Shown piece by piece: positions 47,793 through 60,602 of a stretch of DNA of 64,000 nt. Both the position numbers and the translations under genes were made by a program. Source of the DNA: an uncultured bacterium (GTDB lineage Bacteria; Verrucomicrobiota; Verrucomicrobiia; Verrucomicrobiales; DEV007). The notes below the pieces were generated by a model. That model was given only the letters and a program-made list of their open reading frames with translations. It searched no databases and had not been told where the DNA came from. The stretch spans positions 1 to 64,000 of the forward strand of contig CAXBMO010000003.1 of the NCBI GenBank assembly GCA_963977015.1, written 5' to 3'. Each line of letters opens with the position of its first letter. Position 1 is the first letter of the stretch.

Positions 47793-48217
47793 TTCGATTT
47801 GAAGTCATTCGCCCGGATCCTGGGTTTTCGCTGACCCTCGAGGAAGAGAGCGGAGAAGTGGAGTTGGAGTGTCCCTTCTCGGTTCCGCTTTTTTTCGCTC
47901 AGAATTGTCGGAAAGGCGACTTGATGCTCTGGCTCGATGTCGAAACCAACGTCGTCGGCATTTTTGCCGGAGACAGAAGGGTGGCTTGGCGCCACGCCAT
48001 GATCGCGAGGGCCAATATTGCCATCCTTCATCCCGCCAAGGGGCAATCTGGGGTCGTTGGATTCGAAGTCGGACTACGAGAGGAAGCCGGGGAGCGGCCG
48101 GTATTCGCGGTGGATGAATATTCCCGGGAGATTCTGGATTGGTTCAAGCTGCGGAGATCCGCTCTGAACGAGTACTTTGGAGTCGAAGTTGCGGTGAAGG
48201 ATTACGGAACTCTGTAG
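47789..48217 (+). CDS. Hypothetical protein
   Basis: GTGA overlap with the mrp stop; fills the gap to the next gene; no recognised motif. Confidence 0.5.
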   Translation: MIRFEVIRPDPGFSLTLEEESGEVELECPFSVPLFFAQNCRKGDLMLWLDVETNVVGIFAGDRRVAWRHAMIARANIAILHPAKGQSGVVGFEVGLREEAGERPVFAVDEYSREILDWFKLRRSALNEYFGVEVAVKDYGTL

Positions 48218-48288
48218 CAAATTGGGGAATCCGAATAACTCGTTCTCGACGGACGCCCAAGGGTGAGGCAAAGTTGCTCCACCTCCAA

Positions 48289-50244
48289 ATGGCCGTCTCC
48301 CTCGGTAAACAATATGATAAGCGCGCATTTCTGGGCGCAAAAGCGCACAAACGCTGGAAGCAGACGATTGATCCCAAGCGTCACAAGAGCGACCGGGAAC
48401 GACTGAAGCGCATCGAAGGTCTCGCTCAAGAGATGAGCCTGATGGAGCAGGTGGATTTTCGCCGGAAAGTGCAGGAGTGGAGAGCATTGGCGGCAAACAA
48501 GGAGCTAAAGCTGGAGGAAATCATTGAGCCTGCCTTTGCGATGGTGAGAGAGGCGTCTCGCCGAACAACGGGACTTTTCCATTACCCCGAACAGATCCTG
48601 GCTGGGTTGGCACTCGTTCGGGGAGGAGTGGCGGAGATGGCGACGGGAGAAGGAAAGACCCTCGGGGTGACCTTGCCCGCCTTCGTGTTTGCCCTGTTCG
48701 GAGAAGGAGTTCACGTGATTACGGTCAACAGTTACCTGGCGGAACGTGACCACGAGTTTACCGCCCCCATCCTGGAATATTTGGGGATTTCCTCAGCCCT
48801 ATTGCTTGAGGGACAGGAGGGGACTCCCGTGAAGAAAAAAACCGCCTACCTGGCGGATGTGACCTACGGCGTCGGTTATGAGTTTGGGTTCGACTATCTG
48901 CGCGATCAACTCGCGTTGATTCGTGCGCCGAAATCCGGTCCGCGCGAACGATTGAGAAACGCGTTGATGGGCGTCAAAACGCCGGAACCGCCGGTCGTTC
49001 AACGAAAACTGGCCTACGCGATTATTGACGAGGTCGACAGCGTTCTGATTGATGAAGCGGGATCGCCTCTCGTCATCAGTGAATCTCCACCCGGTGAGAA
49101 CGAGGCGTCACCCGCTTATTGGTTGGCGCGCGATGTCGCTGAAGATCTGATCGCGGATCAGCATTTCGAGCTGAAGCTGGCCAATCGCGGCGTGAAGTTG
49201 ACCCACGAGGGGTTTGACCTTGTTCACGAATTTGAAAACATTCCATGGGATCTCCTGCGAAGACCGTGGCACACCTACGTCTTGAATGCTCTCCGTGCGC
49301 TGCACTTTTTCCAGCGAGACGTGCACTATGTGGTCGATGACGAAGACAAAGTCGTGATCATTGACGAGTTTACGGGCCGAAGATTTGAAGAGCGAACTTG
49401 GCGCGATGGACTTCACCAGGCGGTTGAAGCGAAAGAAGAGGTGGAGATTCGCTCGGAGACTGATTCTGCGGCGAGCATTACCCGGCAACGCTATTTCGGG
49501 TTTTACGAGACCATCTGTGGATTGACGGGAACCGCAGCCGAGAGTGCGGGCGAATTCTGGCACTTTTTCAAAATGGATGTGGAACCAGTTCCTCTCCACA
49601 AACCGAGTCAGCGAAAGATCCTTCCGGAACGTGTCTTTCAAACCCAGGACGCGATGTATCACGCCGTCGTTGCGGATGTCATTCAGCGGTACCAGACCTG
49701 GCAGCCAATCTTGATTGGAACCCGTACCATTCGAGCGAGTGAAGCCCTGGCGGAGTTGATGACCCAATCGGGAGTTCCTTTTACCTTGCTTACCGCCAAA
49801 CAAGACGAGGAGGAGAGCGAAATTGTGGCGAAAGCCGGACAACCAGGGCACGTGCTTCTCGCGACCAACATGGCAGGTCGCGGAACCCACATTGGCCTCA
49901 CGGACGACGCGAAAGCTGCCGGAGGTCTTCACGTGATCGTCGTCGAACGCAATGAGTCGATCCGTATCGACCGTCAGCTCATTGGCCGCGGTGCACGGCA
50001 AGGTGAGGTGGGCGGTGCGCAGATGTTTGTCAGCGCAGACGATCACCTGGTTGAGATGTATGCGCCGGAGCTGGCCACCGAGATGCGCAAGGCGCGAGCG
50101 GACTCCAACGGAGAGCTACCCGGAAAATTCAGCAAAGACTTTGATGAGCTTCAAGCAGAAGTTGAGCGTCGACGCTATGAACAGCGTTTGGCAATGGCCC
50201 ATCGCGACAAGTGGCTCGATGAAATCAAAACCAATCTGGCATGA
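48289..50244 (+). CDS. Secondary, C-terminally truncated SecA-like ATPase
   Basis: EMATGEGKT, TVNSYLAERD, FGFDYLRD, IDEVDSVLIDEA, GLHQAVEAKE, TNMAGRGT, RIDRQLIGR; ends early in the helical scaffold. ATG 48289 chosen. Confidence 0.9.
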   Translation: MAVSLGKQYDKRAFLGAKAHKRWKQTIDPKRHKSDRERLKRIEGLAQEMSLMEQVDFRRKVQEWRALAANKELKLEEIIEPAFAMVREASRRTTGLFHYPEQILAGLALVRGGVAEMATGEGKTLGVTLPAFVFALFGEGVHVITVNSYLAERDHEFTAPILEYLGISSALLLEGQEGTPVKKKTAYLADVTYGVGYEFGFDYLRDQLALIRAPKSGPRERLRNALMGVKTPEPPVVQRKLAYAIIDEVDSVLIDEAGSPLVISESPPGENEASPAYWLARDVAEDLIADQHFELKLANRGVKLTHEGFDLVHEFENIPWDLLRRPWHTYVLNALRALHFFQRDVHYVVDDEDKVVIIDEFTGRRFEERTWRDGLHQAVEAKEEVEIRSETDSAASITRQRYFGFYETICGLTGTAAESAGEFWHFFKMDVEPVPLHKPSQRKILPERVFQTQDAMYHAVVADVIQRYQTWQPILIGTRTIRASEALAELMTQSGVPFTLLTAKQDEEESEIVAKAGQPGHVLLATNMAGRGTHIGLTDDAKAAGGLHVIVVERNESIRIDRQLIGRGARQGEVGGAQMFVSADDHLVEMYAPELATEMRKARADSNGELPGKFSKDFDELQAEVERRRYEQRLAMAHRDKWLDEIKTNLA

Positions 50245-51056
50245 GAAACTACCTAACCCTATTCCTAATCACGTTGAGCGGAACTTTGGCGGCTCAGGAT
50301 ACTGAAGAAGTTCTGACCTATCTGGAGCCCTACCGTTCCATTGAAATTTCTCCGATTGAAATTGGAGTGATCAGTGAGGTGGTTGCCAACGAAGGCGACA
50401 AGGTATCGGTTGGCGACGTTCTGCTGAAACTTGATACGGAGATTACCGAGGCCCGGTTGGGTATCGCACAAATGCAGGCCGACAGTGAGGGCCGGGTACA
50501 AGCAGCGGAAGCTGAATTTGAACTCCAGCAGGACAGGACGGATCGCGTGGAGCGACTGAGCGGAGCCAGTGCCGCGGAAAAGCGCAAGGAGCGTGCCACG
50601 TTGAAAATCGCCGAAGGAAACCTGATCATCGCTCAGGAGGAACGGGAAAGTTACAAGCTTCAGGTGAAACAAATTGAAGCGGAATTGAGAAGACGGATTC
50701 TGACTAGTCCGATTGATGGGATCGTCACGGAGATTACGAAGGATGTCGCCGAGGCCGTTACTCCTTCTGAAATCCGGGAGGACAACTTTTTGGTCAGGGT
50801 CGTAAAAGTCGACCAACTCAGGTGTGTGGGGCATGTTCCAGAAAGTCTCGCCCGCTCGCTTCACGTGGGGGATAGTCTGGATGTTCGAATCGAAGACGGG
50901 AAAGACACCATGGTTCGGGGGAAGATTGAGTTTGTTTCAGCAGTGATCAATCCTGCCACGAAAACCATTCGAATTCGGTTAGTAATTGAGAACCAATCCG
51001 GGAAGCTTCGAAGTGGTTCTTCCGCCAACATCTTGATTCCGCGGAGACTTTCCTGA
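50241..51056 (+). CDS. HlyD/RND membrane-fusion (periplasmic adaptor) protein
   Basis: Signal peptide, GVISEV..EGDKVSVGDVLLKLD, coiled coil, SPIDGIV, GKIEFVS..INPATKT..R; ATGA overlap with the SecA-like stop. Confidence 0.9.
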   Translation: MRNYLTLFLITLSGTLAAQDTEEVLTYLEPYRSIEISPIEIGVISEVVANEGDKVSVGDVLLKLDTEITEARLGIAQMQADSEGRVQAAEAEFELQQDRTDRVERLSGASAAEKRKERATLKIAEGNLIIAQEERESYKLQVKQIEAELRRRILTSPIDGIVTEITKDVAEAVTPSEIREDNFLVRVVKVDQLRCVGHVPESLARSLHVGDSLDVRIEDGKDTMVRGKIEFVSAVINPATKTIRIRLVIENQSGKLRSGSSANILIPRRLS

Positions 51057-51132: not shown

Positions 51133-52113
51133 ATGAGTTCTCTCCACCATTCTTTGCTGACTCTGGCGCTGCTATTCTGCGTTTCGTCTGCGCACGCGTT
51201 TGGCGGTCTTTTTCAGCGGAAGGCAGGTCCCCCGGAGAGTCTGGAAGACATCGTGCTTGCCCAAATCGTGCTTGATGAGGGGCTAATGGGACCAGGGAAA
51301 ATCGATGGCAAGCTTGGTGAATTTACCGTCATCGCCGCACGGCACTACAATGAGCAGCGGAATCTGGCAGCAGACAATTGGTTCAGAATTCTGAAGGACG
51401 CGCAGAAAAACGTAAAGCAGCCGTTCACCTCGTATGTGGTTCGTGATCGCGATCATCAGTTCGTCGGTGCGGTTCCGGCTGATCCGGCTGATCAGGAGAA
51501 ACTCGAGTATTTATCCTATCGGTCGCTGCTGGAGCTAGTCGCAGAACGTTATCACACGGATGAAAGGTTCCTTCGCAAGATTAATCCGGGTCGCAATTTG
51601 GACCGATTGCGAGTTGGGGAATCGGTAACGGTTCCCAATGTCACACCGTTCGAGATTTCGGCGATTCGGAAACATCAGCGGTTTGGAGAGAACCAGACGT
51701 TGAGCAGTCGCTACGTCATCGTGGATACGCAGATTAAGGTCGCGTTAATCTACGAGAAGAAGGGTGGGAAGCTTGTTGCGTCATTCCCGATCACTCCAGG
51801 CGTGAAGAAATTCGTTCCCTATGGCGAGTGGACCATGACCACCATGGTAACCACACCGGAATTTCGATGGGACAAGCGGATGCTGGAGGAAGGCGAGCGA
51901 GGCGATGAATTTTTTCAGCTCCCTCCCGGCCCGAATAGTCCAGTTGGTGTGATTTGGGCCGGCTTATCCAAATCGGGTATCGGATTACATGGAACCAGCA
52001 GTCCGGAGACGATTGGTCGGTCTCGAAGTGCGGGTTGCATCCGGCTCGCGAATTGGGACGCTATACGGCTTAGTTCGGTCGTTCGTCCCGGAGCGGTCGT
52101 TATCGTGAAGTAA
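51133..52113 (+). CDS. L,D-transpeptidase with peptidoglycan-binding and LysM-like segments
   Basis: GPGKIDGKLG, LELVAERYH...LRKINP, PGPNSPVG, IGLHGT...SAGCIRL. Confidence 0.92.
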   Translation: MSSLHHSLLTLALLFCVSSAHAFGGLFQRKAGPPESLEDIVLAQIVLDEGLMGPGKIDGKLGEFTVIAARHYNEQRNLAADNWFRILKDAQKNVKQPFTSYVVRDRDHQFVGAVPADPADQEKLEYLSYRSLLELVAERYHTDERFLRKINPGRNLDRLRVGESVTVPNVTPFEISAIRKHQRFGENQTLSSRYVIVDTQIKVALIYEKKGGKLVASFPITPGVKKFVPYGEWTMTTMVTTPEFRWDKRMLEEGERGDEFFQLPPGPNSPVGVIWAGLSKSGIGLHGTSSPETIGRSRSAGCIRLANWDAIRLSSVVRPGAVVIVK

Positions 52114-53218
52114 TCGTCCGAATATACTTCTCACAAATTTGGTAATACGTGATCATCGAGGCGATATCGATCCATTCATCGGCTGCATGCAGGCGTCCGA
52201 CCTCCGGGCGTGAAAGCATCACCGGGGTTCCTTCCTGGCAGATAAACCTGGCGTCACTGCCGCCAGAGGCTTTGGTCAAACTGACCTTCTTACCGGTAAC
52301 CTCTTCGGTGATCTGACAGAAGAGAGGGTCAGGCGCCAGGTGGGTTGGTTCCGCGCAGATGATGGGGTCCATCGCCACTTCCATTCCCAATACCTGGCGA
52401 ACCTCAGCCAGCATTCTCTCGACGGTGTAGGGAGGTGGAAAACGAAGGTCCAACAGTGCTTCTGCTTCGCCGGGGATACGGTTGATCGCCTCGTTAGGGG
52501 TCGAAACCTTTGTCACGGCACAGGTTGGAAACCAATTCCCGTTGCTCCCATCGCCTCTGGTGTCAGCGAAGTGATCTCTCAGCCGTGCCAACCGGCTGAT
52601 GAGTTTCTCCACGGCGTTTTCCGCCAACCAAGGACGAGCCGCGTGGCCAGCCTTTCCTTCGATACTCACCCTGAGATGGATGATGCCCTTCTCATCGGTG
52701 GTCACGTCGTTCAACGAACCTCCGTCGGGAATGATCGCCCGCGCGCATTCCAAACCCACTTCCTCAAAGAGGTAACGCACCCCATTTTCTCCGCCAATCT
52801 CTTCATCGGAAGTAAGGGCAATTCCAACCGGGCAACCTGGCAGATCCCGCTGGAGTTGGCGGAAGAGCTCGATCATGATCGCGTCAGCTCCCTTCATATC
52901 ACCAGCGCCAGGCCCAATGATGCGACCGTCCTCAACTTGTCCGCGATACACGGCTACATCCGAATGTTCGATGACGTCGATATGCCCACAGAGCAATACT
53001 TGAGGTCGAGTCAGCCCCTCAGGCATGGCAACGAGTGATTGGAACCCATTGGACTCGTAGCAATCGATTCTGACATCGGGAATCGCCTCAAGATGGTTCT
53101 CAATGAACTGAAAGCAGCGTTGCCGCTCATCCGGGTGGAGATCCGTGCTTCGGATCATCATCAGATCCCGGGTCAATGCGGTGATTCGTGCCGCGAGTTG
53201 TTGGTCTTCTGTCATCAT
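52100..53218 (-). CDS. M20 metallo-amidohydrolase (ArgE/DapE/LysK-like)
   Basis: GHIDV, GAGDMKG, SDEEIGG, GHAARPW, GGSDARF, LHAADE. Confidence 0.9.
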   Translation of the reverse strand: MMTEDQQLAARITALTRDLMMIRSTDLHPDERQRCFQFIENHLEAIPDVRIDCYESNGFQSLVAMPEGLTRPQVLLCGHIDVIEHSDVAVYRGQVEDGRIIGPGAGDMKGADAIMIELFRQLQRDLPGCPVGIALTSDEEIGGENGVRYLFEEVGLECARAIIPDGGSLNDVTTDEKGIIHLRVSIEGKAGHAARPWLAENAVEKLISRLARLRDHFADTRGDGSNGNWFPTCAVTKVSTPNEAINRIPGEAEALLDLRFPPPYTVERMLAEVRQVLGMEVAMDPIICAEPTHLAPDPLFCQITEEVTGKKVSLTKASGGSDARFICQEGTPVMLSRPEVGRLHAADEWIDIASMITYYQICEKYIRTITSR

Positions 53219-54613
53219 CTAATCACGATCGGCCTGCCATTCGACCGGGAGCATTTGTTCGGCTTTCTCCAGAAGATTCCAACAAACCTCGTGGCTGGGG
53301 GCAAGGCAAAGAAATTGACCTTTATGAACCTGTTCATCACTTCCGAAATTGAAATTGATCGGCAAAATTCCAACCTCATCGCCTTTCTGAAACAGTAGTC
53401 CCGCTTCCTGTAATATGATCAGGAGTTCAGCGCCTCCCATGGGTTGTTTCAATCGGAGATTCTGCATCAGCCAATGCCCATCAGGGGTGAAATGACGGGC
53501 CAACAAACACGGGTAGGTGGCTCCCGTAACTCGCGCATTGATTTCGCAGACGTAGACATCGGGTAATGAAGAATCATCGCGTTCTACGAAAAGAAAGTCA
53601 GTGCTCGCCGTTCCGCGGTATCCCTGATCATGAAGCCATTGTCCCGCGAGGGTCGCTTGTCGGAACAGTTCCTCCCGAGCGCCGGCGATTCGGGAAAGGT
53701 AAGGTGGAGGCGAAACGTTACCCTCATGGACACTGTCCCGACTGAGGATTTGTTCTGTGATGTCGAAGAGCCAGACACTCTTCTCATCCAGAAACATCTG
53801 CACACTGGGACTCTTGATCGCCTGAATGCCGGGTCTGTCCGGGCTGAGCCATCCTTGAACCATGACCGGTCCTTCATAAAACAGGTGCTCGGGAATATCG
53901 ATGAGGCGCGCTTCGTCAAACGTCCCAATCTTTTTGACTCGAAGGATCCCAATTCCTGAGGCTCCGATCTGGGATTTGAGAACGACTTCATCAAACCCTG
54001 CCTGGCTGAGTTCCGCCATACACGATAATATCTCTGTCTTGTGGTTGGCAAGGCAGGTGGGTGGAGTGGGAAGGGTTTGGGACTCGAGAAACTGGTGGAG
54101 AAGAAGCTTATTGTTCCCCTTCCAGCAGCCTTCCTGAGTGGTGACCGTCTTTTTGCCGAGGGAGGTGGCGATTCCCGTCAGAGTTCCGTCGGTGACGTAT
54201 CCGTCGATCCAGTAGGCTCCGTGGTCTGCGATGGTTGAGAGCCGGTCCTGAACCAACGACGTTTCGTTCTGCGCAAGTGCCTCGCCAACCAAACGGTAAT
54301 TGTCGGGGGACATGATTTCCGTCCTGGGCAGGCTCAGGCCCAACTCTTGCTCGAAATATTGATTCAGGACACCTGCGGAATGCCGCTCGAGAACCAAGAG
54401 GTTGTTCTTGCCTCGAAATAGCAGATTGAGAATGGGAACCAGTCGACCTCCGTAGGAATCAACTTCACCGACAATTTCCTCCAATTCGTTGGTCTCCTTT
54501 TCATTCCCAAAGAAGAGCTCCAGCAAATTCGCGAAGAAAATAACGTCACCTTCCCAGAACTGCGGAAGCTTCCCTTTCGTGTCAATCACTGGCGCGGACA
54601 AGGTGTTAGTCAT
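53219..54613 (-). CDS. Atypical ATP-grasp ligase
   Basis: NNKLLLHQFL, VVLKSQIGASGIG, MVQGW, GYRGTASTDF, CEINARVTGATY (ExNxR). Confidence 0.8.
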   Translation of the reverse strand: MTNTLSAPVIDTKGKLPQFWEGDVIFFANLLELFFGNEKETNELEEIVGEVDSYGGRLVPILNLLFRGKNNLLVLERHSAGVLNQYFEQELGLSLPRTEIMSPDNYRLVGEALAQNETSLVQDRLSTIADHGAYWIDGYVTDGTLTGIATSLGKKTVTTQEGCWKGNNKLLLHQFLESQTLPTPPTCLANHKTEILSCMAELSQAGFDEVVLKSQIGASGIGILRVKKIGTFDEARLIDIPEHLFYEGPVMVQGWLSPDRPGIQAIKSPSVQMFLDEKSVWLFDITEQILSRDSVHEGNVSPPPYLSRIAGAREELFRQATLAGQWLHDQGYRGTASTDFLFVERDDSSLPDVYVCEINARVTGATYPCLLARHFTPDGHWLMQNLRLKQPMGGAELLIILQEAGLLFQKGDEVGILPINFNFGSDEQVHKGQFLCLAPSHEVCWNLLEKAEQMLPVEWQADRD

Positions 54614-54658
54614 GACGACAGACCATTTGCCTTAAACTCAGGGCGGTTGGGTGTTGGT

Positions 54659-55042
54659 TCAACCTTGTTTCGCGATGTCTCGGGCTCGAGGCCATTCTCC
54701 GCCAACATCCGGCAATTCCCTGGTCTCGAGTAGGTAGTGATACATGATCACGCCTTCCTGATCGGCGAAGGGCGGTTCGAGCGATGCGGTTGCCCTTTTG
54801 TAAAGTCCTTCGTCAATTCCCTCCAATTCGTCGATCAACGTCAGGCAGTCATCGCTGACGCGCCAAAGTTCTCCCTTAATGGAGTAGCCTCCGGAATCAA
54901 CAATTGCCGCGGGGTAGCCGCCGTAATCGAACATTCGGTATCCGGGCTTGGTTTGCGCGTTACCGACCCATTCAGCGTTTGCGAGATAGAAATGATTCGA
55001 AAACCCGCGTTTCAAACTGCCATAAACGAAAAGCAGGTTCAT
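54659..55042 (-). CDS. Gamma-glutamyl(amine) cyclotransferase (AIG2/BtrG/GGACT-like)
   Basis: LFVYGSLKRG..NH, YPA, GELW, IDELEG...Y.R. Confidence 0.9.
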   Translation of the reverse strand: MNLLFVYGSLKRGFSNHFYLANAEWVGNAQTKPGYRMFDYGGYPAAIVDSGGYSIKGELWRVSDDCLTLIDELEGIDEGLYKRATASLEPPFADQEGVIMYHYLLETRELPDVGGEWPRARDIAKQG

Positions 55043-55064: not shown

Positions 55065-55146
55065 TACCGGCGGTCGGGATCGAACCGACACTCCCGAAGG
55101 AACGCGATTTTGAATCGCGCGCGTCTACCAATTCCGCCACACCGGC
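55065..55146 (-). tRNA. tRNA-Leu (anticodon CAA), CCA not encoded
   Basis: GCCGGTGTGGCGGAATTGGTAGACGCG-CGCGA-TTCAAAA-TCGCG-TTCCTTCGGGAGT-GTCGGTTCGATCCCGAC-CGCCGGTA: cloverleaf with long variable arm and discriminator A. Confidence 0.97.
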
Positions 55147-57395: not shown

Positions 57396-60300
57396 TCAGG
57401 CACCGCGTCCGCAGCACTGCTTAAACTTCTTGCCGCTTCCACAAGGACAGGCCTCGTTTCGGCCAACTTTGGGTTGTTCACGACGGACTGGTAAACTGAT
57501 TTTTGGTCCCTCGGGCTCTGAGCCGCCCCCGGAAGTCATCACCTGACCAGCACTTGCGGCTTTACTTGGCTGCTGCTGATCACCGAAGAGGTCTGCAAGT
57601 TCAGCCTTCAGGTTGCTGGCAGGCTGGGTTGGAACTCGAATGGTTCGGAAGGCAAAGAGGTTGCCGAGAGCTTCGAACTTGATGTTATCCATCAAGTCAA
57701 CAAAGAGGTTGTAGCCCTCCTTTTTGTATTCCACGAGTGGATCCTTCTGGCCTTGTGCCCGCCATCCGATCGCCTCGCGGAGACCGTCCATGGCGTAGAG
57801 GTGATCTCTCCAAAGGTTATCGATGGCCGAAAGAATGATGAAACGCTCAAGCTCATCAGCATGCTCAGGGTCCTCGTGAGACATCTTCCGGTCATAGGCC
57901 TCGCGAATACGCTCGATGATGAACATCTCCACGCCCTCGTCTGACTTGCTTTCGAAATCGGCGTCTTTCTCGCTGATCATGAGCGGGAAGGTGGAATTGA
58001 GCCAATGAAGAAGACCGGCTGTGTCGCGCTCCGGGCCGTCCGCTTCGAGATGCAGAAACTCGCTGACCTTCGCGGGAACGCATTCCTCAATCAACTCCAT
58101 GATGAGTGCTCTAGGATCCTCTGTCTGGAGAACCTCATTGCGGTAGCCGTAAATGACTTCCCGCTGTTGGTTCATCACATCGTCATACTGAAGAACCCAT
58201 TTGCGGCGAATGTAGTTTCGTTCCTCGACCTTCTTCTGTGCCATCTCGATGGTTTTCGTCAATAGGCCGCCTTCCAATTCCTGACCTTCTTCCAGCCCCA
58301 TCCGGTCCATCAACTTGGTCATCCGTTCAGATGCTCCATACTGACGCATCAGATCATCTTCAAAACTGACGAAGAAGATCGACTGTCCAGGGTCGCCCTG
58401 ACGTCCGGAACGACCTCGCAGCTGGCGGTCAATTCTTCGCGAAGGGTGGCGTTCGGTTCCGATCACGCGCAAGCCGCCAAGATCGGTAACGCCTTCGCCC
58501 AGTTTGATATCAGTTCCTCGACCCGCCATGTTCGTGGCAACCGTGACGGACCCTTTCTTACCGGCGCTTTGCACGATTTCGGCTTCCTGACGGTGATGTT
58601 TCGCGTTCAGGACGCTGTGAGGGATTTTGTCACGTTTCAGCATCTTGGAGAGAACCTCCGATGAACGCTCGCTCGCGGTTCCGAGTAGCAATGGTTGCCC
58701 CTTGTCGTGGGTCTCCTTCACCATATCCACGACCGCCGCCAGTTTTTCGCGTTGCGTCTTGTAAACGCGATCGTTGAGGTCTTCGCGGGCGATGGGTTTG
58801 TTCGTCGGCATGACCATCACGTCACACTTGTAAATATCCTGAAACTCAGCAGCTTCGGTCTCGGCCGTTCCCGTCATTCCAGCCATCTTTTCATACATCC
58901 GGAAGTAGTTCTGGATCGTGATGGTCGCCAGAGTCTGGGTTTCCTGGTCGATCTTGACGCCTTCCTTGGCCTCGACGGCTTGATGCAGTCCATCGCTCCA
59001 CCGGCGTCCCGGCATGGGGCGCCCGGTATTTTCGTCCAGAATCACAACTTTGTTGTCCGTCACCATGTAGTGGACGTCTTTCTCGAACAGGCAATAGGCC
59101 TTCAGAAGTTGACTGATCGAGTGCATTCTCTGAGCCTGGGAGTCCGCTTGCTCTTGGATCTCTTGCTTCTTTTTCTCGCGGTCGGCATCACTGAGAGAGG
59201 TGTCACCATCCATCTCGCTAAAAACCGTGGCGATGTCGTGAAGGACGAAGGCGTCTGGGTCGTCTGGATTGAGAAACTCGCGGCCTTTCTCGGTCAAATC
59301 GGCATCGTTCTGCTTCTCGTCGATGTTGAAGAACAACTCTTCTTTGAGGGCGAAAAGTTGGGCTTTTTGGGTGTCCTGATAGAACGAAAGTTCGGCCTTG
59401 TCGGTCGCGCGCCTCACTTCCGGGTCTTCCAGCATCCGCATGAGTTGGCGATGCCGGGGTTGCCCCAGTTTGACCCGGAAAAGGTTCATGCCAACTTCCT
59501 CCAAATCGCCTTCATCGAGCGCCTTTTTCGCGTCATTGGCGAATTTATTGCAAAGGGCGATCTGTTTTTTGACCAGTTGGTTAACGATGCCTTTGAACCG
59601 GTCAAACTGATGCGTTGAAGAGGCGACCGGACCGCTGATAATCAGTGGAGTGCGGGCTTCGTCAATCAGAATGGAGTCAACCTCATCAATCAACGCATAA
59701 TAGTGGCTTCGCTGGACTTGGTTTTCGACCGTTGTCGCCATTCCGTTGTCGCGAAGGTAGTCAAACCCAAACTCACTCGCCGTCCCATAGGTGATATCCG
59801 TTTGGTACTGCTCGCGCCTGACCGAGGGATCCTGATTGTTCTGAATGCAACCAACAGACAGGCCGAGCCAACGGAAAAGTTCCCCCATCCATTCACTATC
59901 CCGTCTCGCCAGATAGTCGTTCACGGTCACGACGTGGACACCCAGGCCGGTGAGAGCATTCAGATATACCGGGATGGTCGCGACAAGGGTTTTTCCCTCA
60001 CCCGTTGCCATCTCGGTGATGATTCCGCGGTGAAGGGCAATTCCACCGATCAACTGGACATCGAAGTGAACCATTTCCCAAGTGATCGGCAAATCGCAGA
60101 CATCCCAGGTTTTGCCGCACATCCGTCGCGACGCGTTTTTGACGACCGCGAAGGCTTCGGGAAGAATTTCGTCCAAATACTCGGCCCGTTTGTCGGGGAA
60201 CTCTTCGCGCAGTTCATCATAAAGTTTTTGGGAGTCGAGGATGGCTTCGATTTGAGACTCCTTGTTCCCGCTTTCTCCCTCAGTCTCCATTCGTCCGGCT

Positions 60301-60602
60301 AGATCGGCCGCTTTCGGAAACTCCTTGCTGAGCCCTCCCAACCGCTTCTGCCAGGACTTGATCAAATCGAGCCGCACCTCCTCCTCCATCGCCTCAATGT
60401 TGCGAGTCGCGAAGTATTCGACATCCTCTTCGTAGCGGGAGAGGTGTGCTTTCCATGCTGCCGTTTTCTCCTTGAGAACTTCTTCGGGTTCTTCCTGGAG
60501 TCGTTCTTCGATCGTGTTGATCTCCTGAACAATTGGCCACATCTGGCGCAATCGGCGCTGATTTTGATTACCGACGATTTTTTTGAAAACCCACTGGAGC
60601 AT
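57396..60602 (-). CDS. secA: Preprotein translocase subunit SecA (full length)
   Basis: All SecA motifs plus QKDPLVEYKKEG and C-terminal SEC-C KVGRNEACPCGSGKKFKQCCG. Confidence 0.98.
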   Translation of the reverse strand: MLQWVFKKIVGNQNQRRLRQMWPIVQEINTIEERLQEEPEEVLKEKTAAWKAHLSRYEEDVEYFATRNIEAMEEEVRLDLIKSWQKRLGGLSKEFPKAADLAGRMETEGESGNKESQIEAILDSQKLYDELREEFPDKRAEYLDEILPEAFAVVKNASRRMCGKTWDVCDLPITWEMVHFDVQLIGGIALHRGIITEMATGEGKTLVATIPVYLNALTGLGVHVVTVNDYLARRDSEWMGELFRWLGLSVGCIQNNQDPSVRREQYQTDITYGTASEFGFDYLRDNGMATTVENQVQRSHYYALIDEVDSILIDEARTPLIISGPVASSTHQFDRFKGIVNQLVKKQIALCNKFANDAKKALDEGDLEEVGMNLFRVKLGQPRHRQLMRMLEDPEVRRATDKAELSFYQDTQKAQLFALKEELFFNIDEKQNDADLTEKGREFLNPDDPDAFVLHDIATVFSEMDGDTSLSDADREKKKQEIQEQADSQAQRMHSISQLLKAYCLFEKDVHYMVTDNKVVILDENTGRPMPGRRWSDGLHQAVEAKEGVKIDQETQTLATITIQNYFRMYEKMAGMTGTAETEAAEFQDIYKCDVMVMPTNKPIAREDLNDRVYKTQREKLAAVVDMVKETHDKGQPLLLGTASERSSEVLSKMLKRDKIPHSVLNAKHHRQEAEIVQSAGKKGSVTVATNMAGRGTDIKLGEGVTDLGGLRVIGTERHPSRRIDRQLRGRSGRQGDPGQSIFFVSFEDDLMRQYGASERMTKLMDRMGLEEGQELEGGLLTKTIEMAQKKVEERNYIRRKWVLQYDDVMNQQREVIYGYRNEVLQTEDPRALIMELIEECVPAKVSEFLHLEADGPERDTAGLLHWLNSTFPLMISEKDADFESKSDEGVEMFIIERIREAYDRKMSHEDPEHADELERFIILSAIDNLWRDHLYAMDGLREAIGWRAQGQKDPLVEYKKEGYNLFVDLMDNIKFEALGNLFAFRTIRVPTQPASNLKAELADLFGDQQQPSKAASAGQVMTSGGGSEPEGPKISLPVRREQPKVGRNEACPCGSGKKFKQCCGRGA

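Follow-up and report, generated by a model that had tools for sequence, protein, structure and literature searches.

We describe a pair of adjoining genes in a 64,000-nucleotide stretch of DNA from an uncultured bacterium of the Verrucomicrobiales (contig CAXBMO010000003.1, positions 1 to 64,000; the window, in what follows, is this whole stretch). One gene encodes an ATP-grasp amide ligase of 464 amino acids (53219..54613), the other an M20-family metallo-amidohydrolase of 372 amino acids (52100..53218). Both lie on the minus strand with no nucleotide between them, the TAG of the ligase being followed directly by ATG ATG. With a confidence a little above even, we propose that the two form a cassette, passed on by descent and by transfer as one unit, that likely serves a make-and-break cycle of one small, dipeptide-like product. 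The gene order, linkage, co-phylogeny, fold and intact active-site motifs are established. A first-pass annotation of the window had described a larger system, with a gene of the gamma-glutamylamine cyclotransferase family (GGACT) upstream of the pair as its third member; the shared orientation of the three genes, their gaps of 45 and 0 nucleotides and the ligase motifs were all reproduced by the open reading frame (ORF) coordinates, Pfam and alignment. The conserved unit, nevertheless, is the pair and not the triad. Full-text searches of the literature, with most subscription papers outside their reach and supplements excluded, found no description of such a ligase–M20 pair.

Relatives of the ligase are plentiful: 923 proteins reached an E-value of 0.001 or better among 7994 candidates, and the 120 matches listed are 49-100% identical to it and full length. 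Neighbourhoods were counted for 80 genome loci, the best of 240. A cognate M20 gene lies directly downstream of the ligase in 73 of these, from several phyla (in 72 the gene is whole or runs into a contig end, in one it is in two pieces); in the remaining seven the M20 gene is unlinked in three genomes, lies past a contig break at the beginning of another contig in one, and was not found in three. The same picture is obtained from the 150 genomes of the order, where the ligase is present in 24, the cognate M20 in 22 and both in 21, adjacent in every case; all 21 genomes with a ligase of the main type, to which the window belongs, have the M20 gene beside it. Within the family the two are adjacent at 25 of 26 main-type loci, and the last locus stops at a contig edge. 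Among 251 Planctomycetota genomes both genes occur, adjacent, in the same four, and neither was shown in the other 247, with only 6-7 candidates scored per genome. This adjacency is far beyond chance.

The two genes also share a history. Trees (a quick tree and FastTree trees) were built from the 70 of 81 loci in which both genes are near full length, and 37 of the 45 ligase splits with support of at least 0.9 recur in the M20 tree, against a mean of 0.2 and a maximum of 2 after shuffling. The shared splits include a group of Verrucomicrobiia, Proteobacteria, Syntrophobacteraceae and Binatia, and nest one sequence from the Pirellulaceae among verrucomicrobial ones. Kinship accounts for part of this congruence. 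The cross-phylum groups, being common to both trees, point to joint transfer of ligase and M20. With the adjacency and the congruent trees, the gene-neighbourhood check proposed in the first-pass annotation ties the ligase to its M20 partner. The M20 sequence of one locus, L005, has an abnormally long branch.

No third gene is common across lineages, beyond close kin, in these neighbourhoods, and no carrier or precursor-peptide gene is conserved nearby, which extends to other lineages what the first-pass annotation had seen in the window. In 75 upstream and 69 downstream stretches of 400 nucleotides there is no short ORF shared beyond close kin and no conserved small acidic ORF. Upstream k-mers from 75 loci gave nothing clearly above shuffles beyond kin, a promoter and terminator scan stayed at chance level, and Rfam models run on 11 of the 81 loci found tRNAs only and no riboswitch. 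Ligase–M20 fusions are absent among proteins of 841-2400 amino acids; a plain fusion might also be 813-840 amino acids long, a range outside that search. Viral contigs gave 102 pattern matches and no relative. A prediction of the ligase–M20 complex scored 0.00 in two runs, which weighs neither way.

The ligase family is uncharacterised, PGM1-like and tightly conserved. Pfam gives the window protein a marginal match to ATP-grasp_3 (24.2 bits, cut-off 23.2). A structural model from 118 sequences (predicted local distance difference test, pLDDT, 94.5) has PGM1 as its best fold (3wvq; Z 32.3, root-mean-square deviation 2.6, 389 residues aligned, model residues 23-457), followed by 8ynd (Z 30.4), BesA (Z 27.6), LdmS (Z 26.7) and then PurK-type enzymes (Z 22.4). 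With a wider profile PGM1, 8ynd, BesA and LdmS were again the top four PDB matches, at E-values of 1.6e-26 to 2.1e-20. The resemblance to PGM1 that had been suspected from motifs is thus borne out by structure search and profile alignment alike, and the impression that the ligase is not like RimK, GshB or CarB agrees with scores of at most 28 bits from the RimK, LysX, GshB and CarB-like models, against cut-offs of 143-350. Identity to the four solved enzymes is 15-17%, so there is no orthologue among them. An N-terminal region of about 165 amino acids had been left unplaced; since the match to the PGM1-type fold runs over the full length, the model places it as a pre-ATP-grasp domain shared with PGM1, ahead of an ATP-grasp core and a PGM1-like C-domain. 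The Pfam family PF18604 (PreAtp-grasp) has no match on the window ligase; of 27 proteins of the close family, five of them chosen for a precomputed match, 5 score above its cut-off. The automatic names "butirosin ACP (acyl carrier protein) L-glutamate ligase" and "succinyl-diaminopimelate desuccinylase" on relatives of the two proteins (P0038, P0103, P0279 and others) look like over-annotation.

The active-site motifs of the ligase read Q288-I-L...H296-x-G-N299, GYRG...D339-F and E357-I-N-A-R-V-T-G-A-T-Y367. Across 118 aligned ligases Q288, L290, H296, G298, N299, R333, G334, D339, E357, N359-R361 and T363-Y367 are invariant, as are R57, K169 and the P-loop residues G217, S219, G220 and G222. 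The C-terminal R463-D464 (window 53219-53230) is invariant in the 118 relatives and missing in a sister clade that lacks the M20 partner. Profile alignment matches R47, Q244, N255, D301 and R305 of LdmS, an L-Asp-L-Met ligase, with the invariant R57, Q288, N299, E357 and R361. In LdmS, as described in the accessible part of PMC9486568, R47 holds the carboxylate of the acceptor amino acid. An Arg at the R57 position is also found in PGM1 and 8ynd, and it is therefore only modest evidence for a free amino acid as acceptor. The side-chain pockets differ: Y252, N307 and S309 of the Asp pocket correspond to H296, T363 and A365 (N255 being N299), and L44 of the Met pocket to Y54, a position placed by offset from R57. 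Asp-Met is consequently not the product to be expected. No feature found in the ligase points to glutamate or to a gamma linkage except the fold shared with BesA, and there by PDB label.

The M20 protein has the architecture of the ArgE/DapE type, with Pfam matches to Peptidase_M20 (84.9 bits) and M20_dimer. Seven residues, H79, D81, D107, E139, E140, D165 and H344, are invariant in 110 sequences; we take them, from DapE and PepV, to be the metal ligands and the general base. The nearest solved protein is 2rb7, labelled merely as an M20/M25/M40 peptidase (E-value 6e-58), with DapE next. The residue roles of HiDapE (5vo3) are taken from the accessible part of PMC5919655. R258, N245 and H194, for the proximal carboxylate, become R259, N246 and H192, a set that would suit an N-acyl-L-amino acid or a dipeptide with a free carboxylate as substrate. 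In the printed alignment N244, S181 and S290, for the distal diaminopimelate carboxylate, and T325 become I245, I179, C288 and G320. The position of DapE R178, which presumably acts on the succinyl side, is an invariant E176. By eye, neither the M20 protein nor the ligase has a signal peptide.

The first-pass annotation had allowed that this gene might be the true dapE or argE of its genome, and as far as computation goes this is refuted. Its scores against DapE models are 139.8 at best with a cut-off of 381, then 122.9 with 284 and 100 with 361.8 bits; against the ArgE model TIGR01892 it reaches 98 bits (cut-off 297.7), and two other M20s of the genome reach 166 and 211. On TIGR01910 it has 119 bits versus 203 and 247 for two other ArgE/DapE-type M20s. 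The genome encodes DapL (606 bits, above cut-off), no dapD scores above cut-off in the 95%-complete assembly (best 24 bits), and an ArgJ-like gene falls just under its cut-off (275 bits, cut-off 298). A further gene elsewhere in the genome, C43, resembles the M20D type by eye.

Some cognate-type M20 genes have unusual forms or settings. The gene is in two pieces in L077 (a Scalindua rubra record) and in G041:C58:41529-42710. Two genomes from different genera each hold a copy (55% identity) that has no ligase with it and adjoins two transglutaminase-like genes (L082:3938-7039 and L083:5800-8828). A gene of the opine/octopine dehydrogenase family follows the M20 gene at L036:9652-10749 and, as judged from clustering, also in L027, a close relative; it was seen at no other locus.

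The GGACT gene (54659..55042, minus strand, 127 amino acids; PF06094, 77 bits, cut-off 22.8) is the sole PF06094 member of the genome, which is 6.9 Mb and holds a single copy of the ligase. It is a local neighbour of the pair and not a conserved member. A tRNA-Leu(CAA) gene (55065..55146, minus strand), absent from the first-pass annotation, lies directly upstream, 22 nucleotides away on the same strand. The order tRNA-GGACT-ligase-M20 is kept in all four genomes of the genus (the window, L002, L003 and L061; one fully supported group), with GGACT identities of 49-62%, and co-transcription of GGACT with the pair in this genus is plausible. GGACT is beside the ligase in none of the other 77 loci, 12 of which have less than 700 nucleotides upstream, nor in any of the 20 main-type loci with enough flank from other genera of the family. 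A single-protein query of the 150 genomes of the order found GGACT in 50, of which 39 are without the ligase; it is present in 11 of the 24 ligase genomes, on a different contig from the ligase in all 11. In ten other genomes its neighbours vary (mdh, proC, panB, an lplA-like gene, cphA) and none of the ten has a tRNA beside it, so the link to the tRNA is genus-specific too, and GGACT as the usual neighbour of tRNA-Leu is rejected. The triad as a conserved system is likewise rejected, adjacency being confined to one genus, in which local recruitment of GGACT is possible. The cyclotransferase thus drops out as a conserved member of the system. With it the likeness to BtrJ/BtrG protection and deprotection, and the suggestion of a gamma-glutamyl product, lose their only specific support.

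Two side observations concern these genes. In genus g5, GGACT converges on a cyanophycin synthetase gene (L094:3038-6176, L097:370-3491). The tRNA-Leu(CAA) gene could be an insertion point in the ancestor of the window's genus; no integrase was seen among the window ORFs from 42000 on, and attachment repeats were not searched.

The distribution of the ligase is patchy within the family, where it occurs in 54 of 133 other genomes; it is in none of the 36 genomes of family f2 and in 3 of the 35 of f5. In the anammox order, Brocadiales (92 genomes), it is found in 23, all among the 27 with a Scalindua-type trxB (at least 76% identity), and in none of the other 65. This trxB adjoins the ligase, which makes it a clade marker yet not an independent one; the copy next to the pair (L065:9658-10614) has close homologues (at least 76%) only in that clade, those of other anammox bacteria being 39-52% identical. 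The named anammox matches are from Scalinduaceae, together with one record labelled Brocadiaceae that groups with them. The ligase is thus near-core (23 of 27) in Scalindua, a marine anammox lineage in the accessible part of PMC13597103. Its compatible solutes are described as unproven, and its way of coping with salt as open, in the accessible part of PMC5486813. The distribution in Scalindua suggests a possible role of the ligase in coping with salt. No GshB gene scores above cut-off in the window's genome, so that a role related to thiols is neither supported nor excluded.

In the proposed cycle the ligase would couple a small carboxylic acid (probably an amino acid) with the amino group of an L-amino acid at the expense of ATP, by an acyl-phosphate mechanism that the chemistry of the family would place at E357, N359 and R361. 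In the ligase, R57 would bind the free alpha-carboxylate of the acceptor; in the M20 enzyme, which would hydrolyse the same amide bond and release the parts, R259 and N246 would do so. Both enzymes are probably cytoplasmic. As a tentative guess, the product may be a reversible pool, either a compatible solute or a reserve of amino acids or nitrogen. The pair provides a dedicated partner for an uncharacterised family of amide ligases, and a single in vitro screen could suffice to identify a new metabolite of marine bacteria of the Planctomycetes-Verrucomicrobia-Chlamydiae (PVC) group. It also corrects two automatic database names, dapE and butirosin ACP glutamate ligase, and ligases of the PGM1 fold are useful as biocatalysts.

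Ligases of a sister type, 43-47% identical and with no cognate M20 beside them, occur in 4 of the 55 ligase genomes of the family and on two metagenome contigs. Their RVTGATY loop carries A in place of G, and they are without the C-terminal RD, which 78 of 79 main-type ligases have. In all six loci (L084:3800-8986, L085:3472-8393, L086:4743-10175, L100, L101:4974-9750 and L106) the gene has an EamA gene of the same orientation on one side and, on the other, a convergent gene for a protein of 823-870 amino acids. The N-terminus of this protein resembles periplasmic binding proteins (Atlas 0.97) and its C-terminus pentameric ligand-gated channels (ELIC, E-value 0.0013; 31 of 34 matches are such channels); the assignment comes from these two sets of matches, and the fold search with its poor model (pLDDT 44.6) serves as a lead only. 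The channel family is found in exactly 3 of 151 genomes, those with sister-type ligases, and one of its genomes, G069, has a second paralogue of 1140 amino acids elsewhere. This context, from a narrow sample, hints at a small, exportable product for the ligase family, and a synthase-exporter-receptor module is possible. A bolder reading, which we consider decidedly unlikely, is that the family makes a novel small amide with two uses: in the window clade and Scalindua a reversible solute for salt stress or nitrogen reserve, with its own hydrolase, and in the sister clade a compound that is exported by EamA and gates the pentameric channel through the fused periplasmic binding domain, a neurotransmitter-like circuit. 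Were this true, a bacterial Cys-loop-type channel would have its native ligand named; through the sister clade, a native ligand for an orphan pentameric channel of bacteria becomes open to test.

Several observations weigh against a make-and-break cycle. The cognate M20 was not found in the genomes of 3 of the 80 loci and is unlinked in 3 more, the ligase is missing in 1 of the 22 M20-bearing genomes of the order, and another has a second, unlinked M20. Unless some control is in place, a synthase translationally coupled to its hydrolase would amount to a futile cycle, and the neighbourhoods yielded neither a regulator nor an upstream motif. Even in the closest precedent, cleavage of Asp-Met by HmrA is stated as untested in the accessible part of PMC9486568. 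The link to salt is weak: nqrA, used as a salt proxy, occurs in 2 of 151 genomes and is uninformative, the pair is also carried by lineages outside the PVC group whose habitat is unknown, and no dipeptide is listed for the solutes of R. baltica in the accessible part of PMC3694870, the presence of the pair in R. baltica not having been checked. Finally, the ArgE/DapE branch of the M20 enzyme would fit a two-step synthesis equally well. In this scheme the ligase would link an N-acylated block to an amino acid, after which the M20 would strip off the acyl group, both enzymes working forward so that the final product accumulates. The nearest characterised relatives of the M20, DapE and ArgE, are deacylases, the 0-nucleotide coupling suits a 1:1 forward pathway, and PGM1-type ligases accept N-blocked acids, according to the accessible part of PMC8939145. 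However, the conserved neighbours of the pair include neither an acyltransferase nor an amidinotransferase, the sister clade manages with no cognate M20, and the position of DapE R178 is held by the invariant E176. We regard this two-step synthesis as unlikely. There is a small chance that the ligase, like PGM1, caps the N-terminus of a peptide or protein with an acyl group or amino acid and that the M20 removes or recycles the cap. In favour are the fold, for which PGM1 is the top match, the R-x-T-G-x-T loop common to both ligases, and two unlinked M20 copies that stand beside transglutaminase-like genes; but the flanks hold no short ORF shared beyond close kin, and M20s of the ArgE/DapE branch act on an N-acyl amino acid with a free carboxylate by the cut bond, which a capped protein would not have.

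That the three genes of the window work together, the ligase gamma-glutamylating, the cyclotransferase removing the group and the M20 carrying turnover further, seems very improbable. The common strand, the 45-nucleotide gap and the order kept in 4 of 4 genus genomes agree with it, as do the fold shared with BesA, a glutamate ligase by PDB label, and the "butirosin ACP glutamate ligase" name given automatically to some relatives. On the other hand GGACT adjoins the ligase at none of the other 77 loci, 12 of them with a short upstream flank, it is never on the ligase contig in the 11 ligase genomes of the order that hold it, 39 of 50 GGACT genomes have no ligase, its neighbours elsewhere vary, and no acyl carrier gene is near. 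We give very little credence to a signal that the ligase makes and that is perceived at low concentration, the M20 clearing it in the main clade, and export with sensing by the channel taking over in the sister clade. The EamA and channel-like genes flank the sister-type ligase at 6 of 6 loci and the channel is confined to the three genomes with that ligase. The main clade, the window included, is however without a conserved exporter, channel or regulator, and the sister clade, seen in two genera and two metagenome contigs, differs at pocket positions and may make another product. Practically no room is left for a housekeeping DapE or ArgE beside an unrelated ligase, which is refuted as far as computation goes. 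Many M20 relatives are labelled succinyl-diaminopimelate desuccinylase by the Joint Genome Institute and the best NCBIfam matches are DapE models, but the scores are far under cut-off (140 versus 381, 123 versus 284 and, for ArgE, 98 versus 298), the genome has DapL without DapD, an ArgJ-like gene and two better ArgE/DapE-type M20s, and the cognate M20 was not found in 128 of the 150 genomes of the order.

On its other side the pair is bounded by a convergent L,D-transpeptidase (YkuD) gene on the plus strand (51133..52113), which overlaps the end of the M20 gene by 14 nucleotides and is kept in the genus only. The closest relatives are labelled Verrucomicrobiales. Elsewhere in the window, a shortened SecA paralogue and an HlyD-type adaptor lie at 48139-51056 and 57396-60602, besides a full-length secA.

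Returning to the make-and-break cycle, ATP-grasp ligases beside amide-removing enzymes are known from BtrJ/BtrG and LysX/LysK, the pairs invoked in the first-pass annotation. Those systems need the carrier proteins BtrI and LysW. Among the conserved neighbours of the window pair there is no carrier gene, and GGACT is unlinked outside the genus; the LysX and LysK models give 15.3 versus 275.6 and 46.7 versus 363 bits, and the small acidic ORF expected of a LysW is not conserved. PGM1, of pheganomycin synthesis, and 8ynd, an ATP-grasp peptide ligase of Streptomyces, share the whole-length fold and the pre-ATP-grasp domain with our ligase, and PGM1 also the R-x-T-G-x-T loop. Identity is 17%, however, and the window pair stands alone with a hydrolase, its conserved neighbours including no gene for a PGM1-type precursor peptide, a nonribosomal peptide synthetase, an amidinotransferase or guanidino-acid synthesis. 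BesA (8yi6, propargylglycine-glutamate ligase) joins small amino acids without a carrier and has the same fold (Z 27.6, 397 residues aligned); it differs in its 15% identity, in the GN motif, in the loop that follows the catalytic Arg, and in its Bes pathway genes, which the window pair lacks.

The closest design is that of Staphylococcus, where hmrA, for an M20D dipeptidase, and ldmS, for the L-Asp-L-Met ligase, form a two-gene operon (accessible part of PMC9486568). Both are two-gene units of an ATP-grasp ligase and an M20 enzyme, with the same ligase fold (Z 26.7) and with the equivalents of R47, Q244, N255, D301 and R305 kept. The window ligase is only 15% identical to LdmS, its Asp and Met pockets are changed, its M20 partner is of the ArgE/DapE branch and not M20D, the gene order is reversed, no riboswitch was seen in 11 loci, and the pair has probably been spread by transfer across phyla. 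By analogy, the pair would work like the LdmS/HmrA design and yet fall outside it, since both the pockets and the M20 subfamily differ. In animals, carnosine synthase and carnosinase form a make-and-break pair of an ATP-grasp dipeptide synthase and an M20 dipeptidase, drawn from another ATP-grasp branch and another M20 subfamily. The window pair may work in the same manner.

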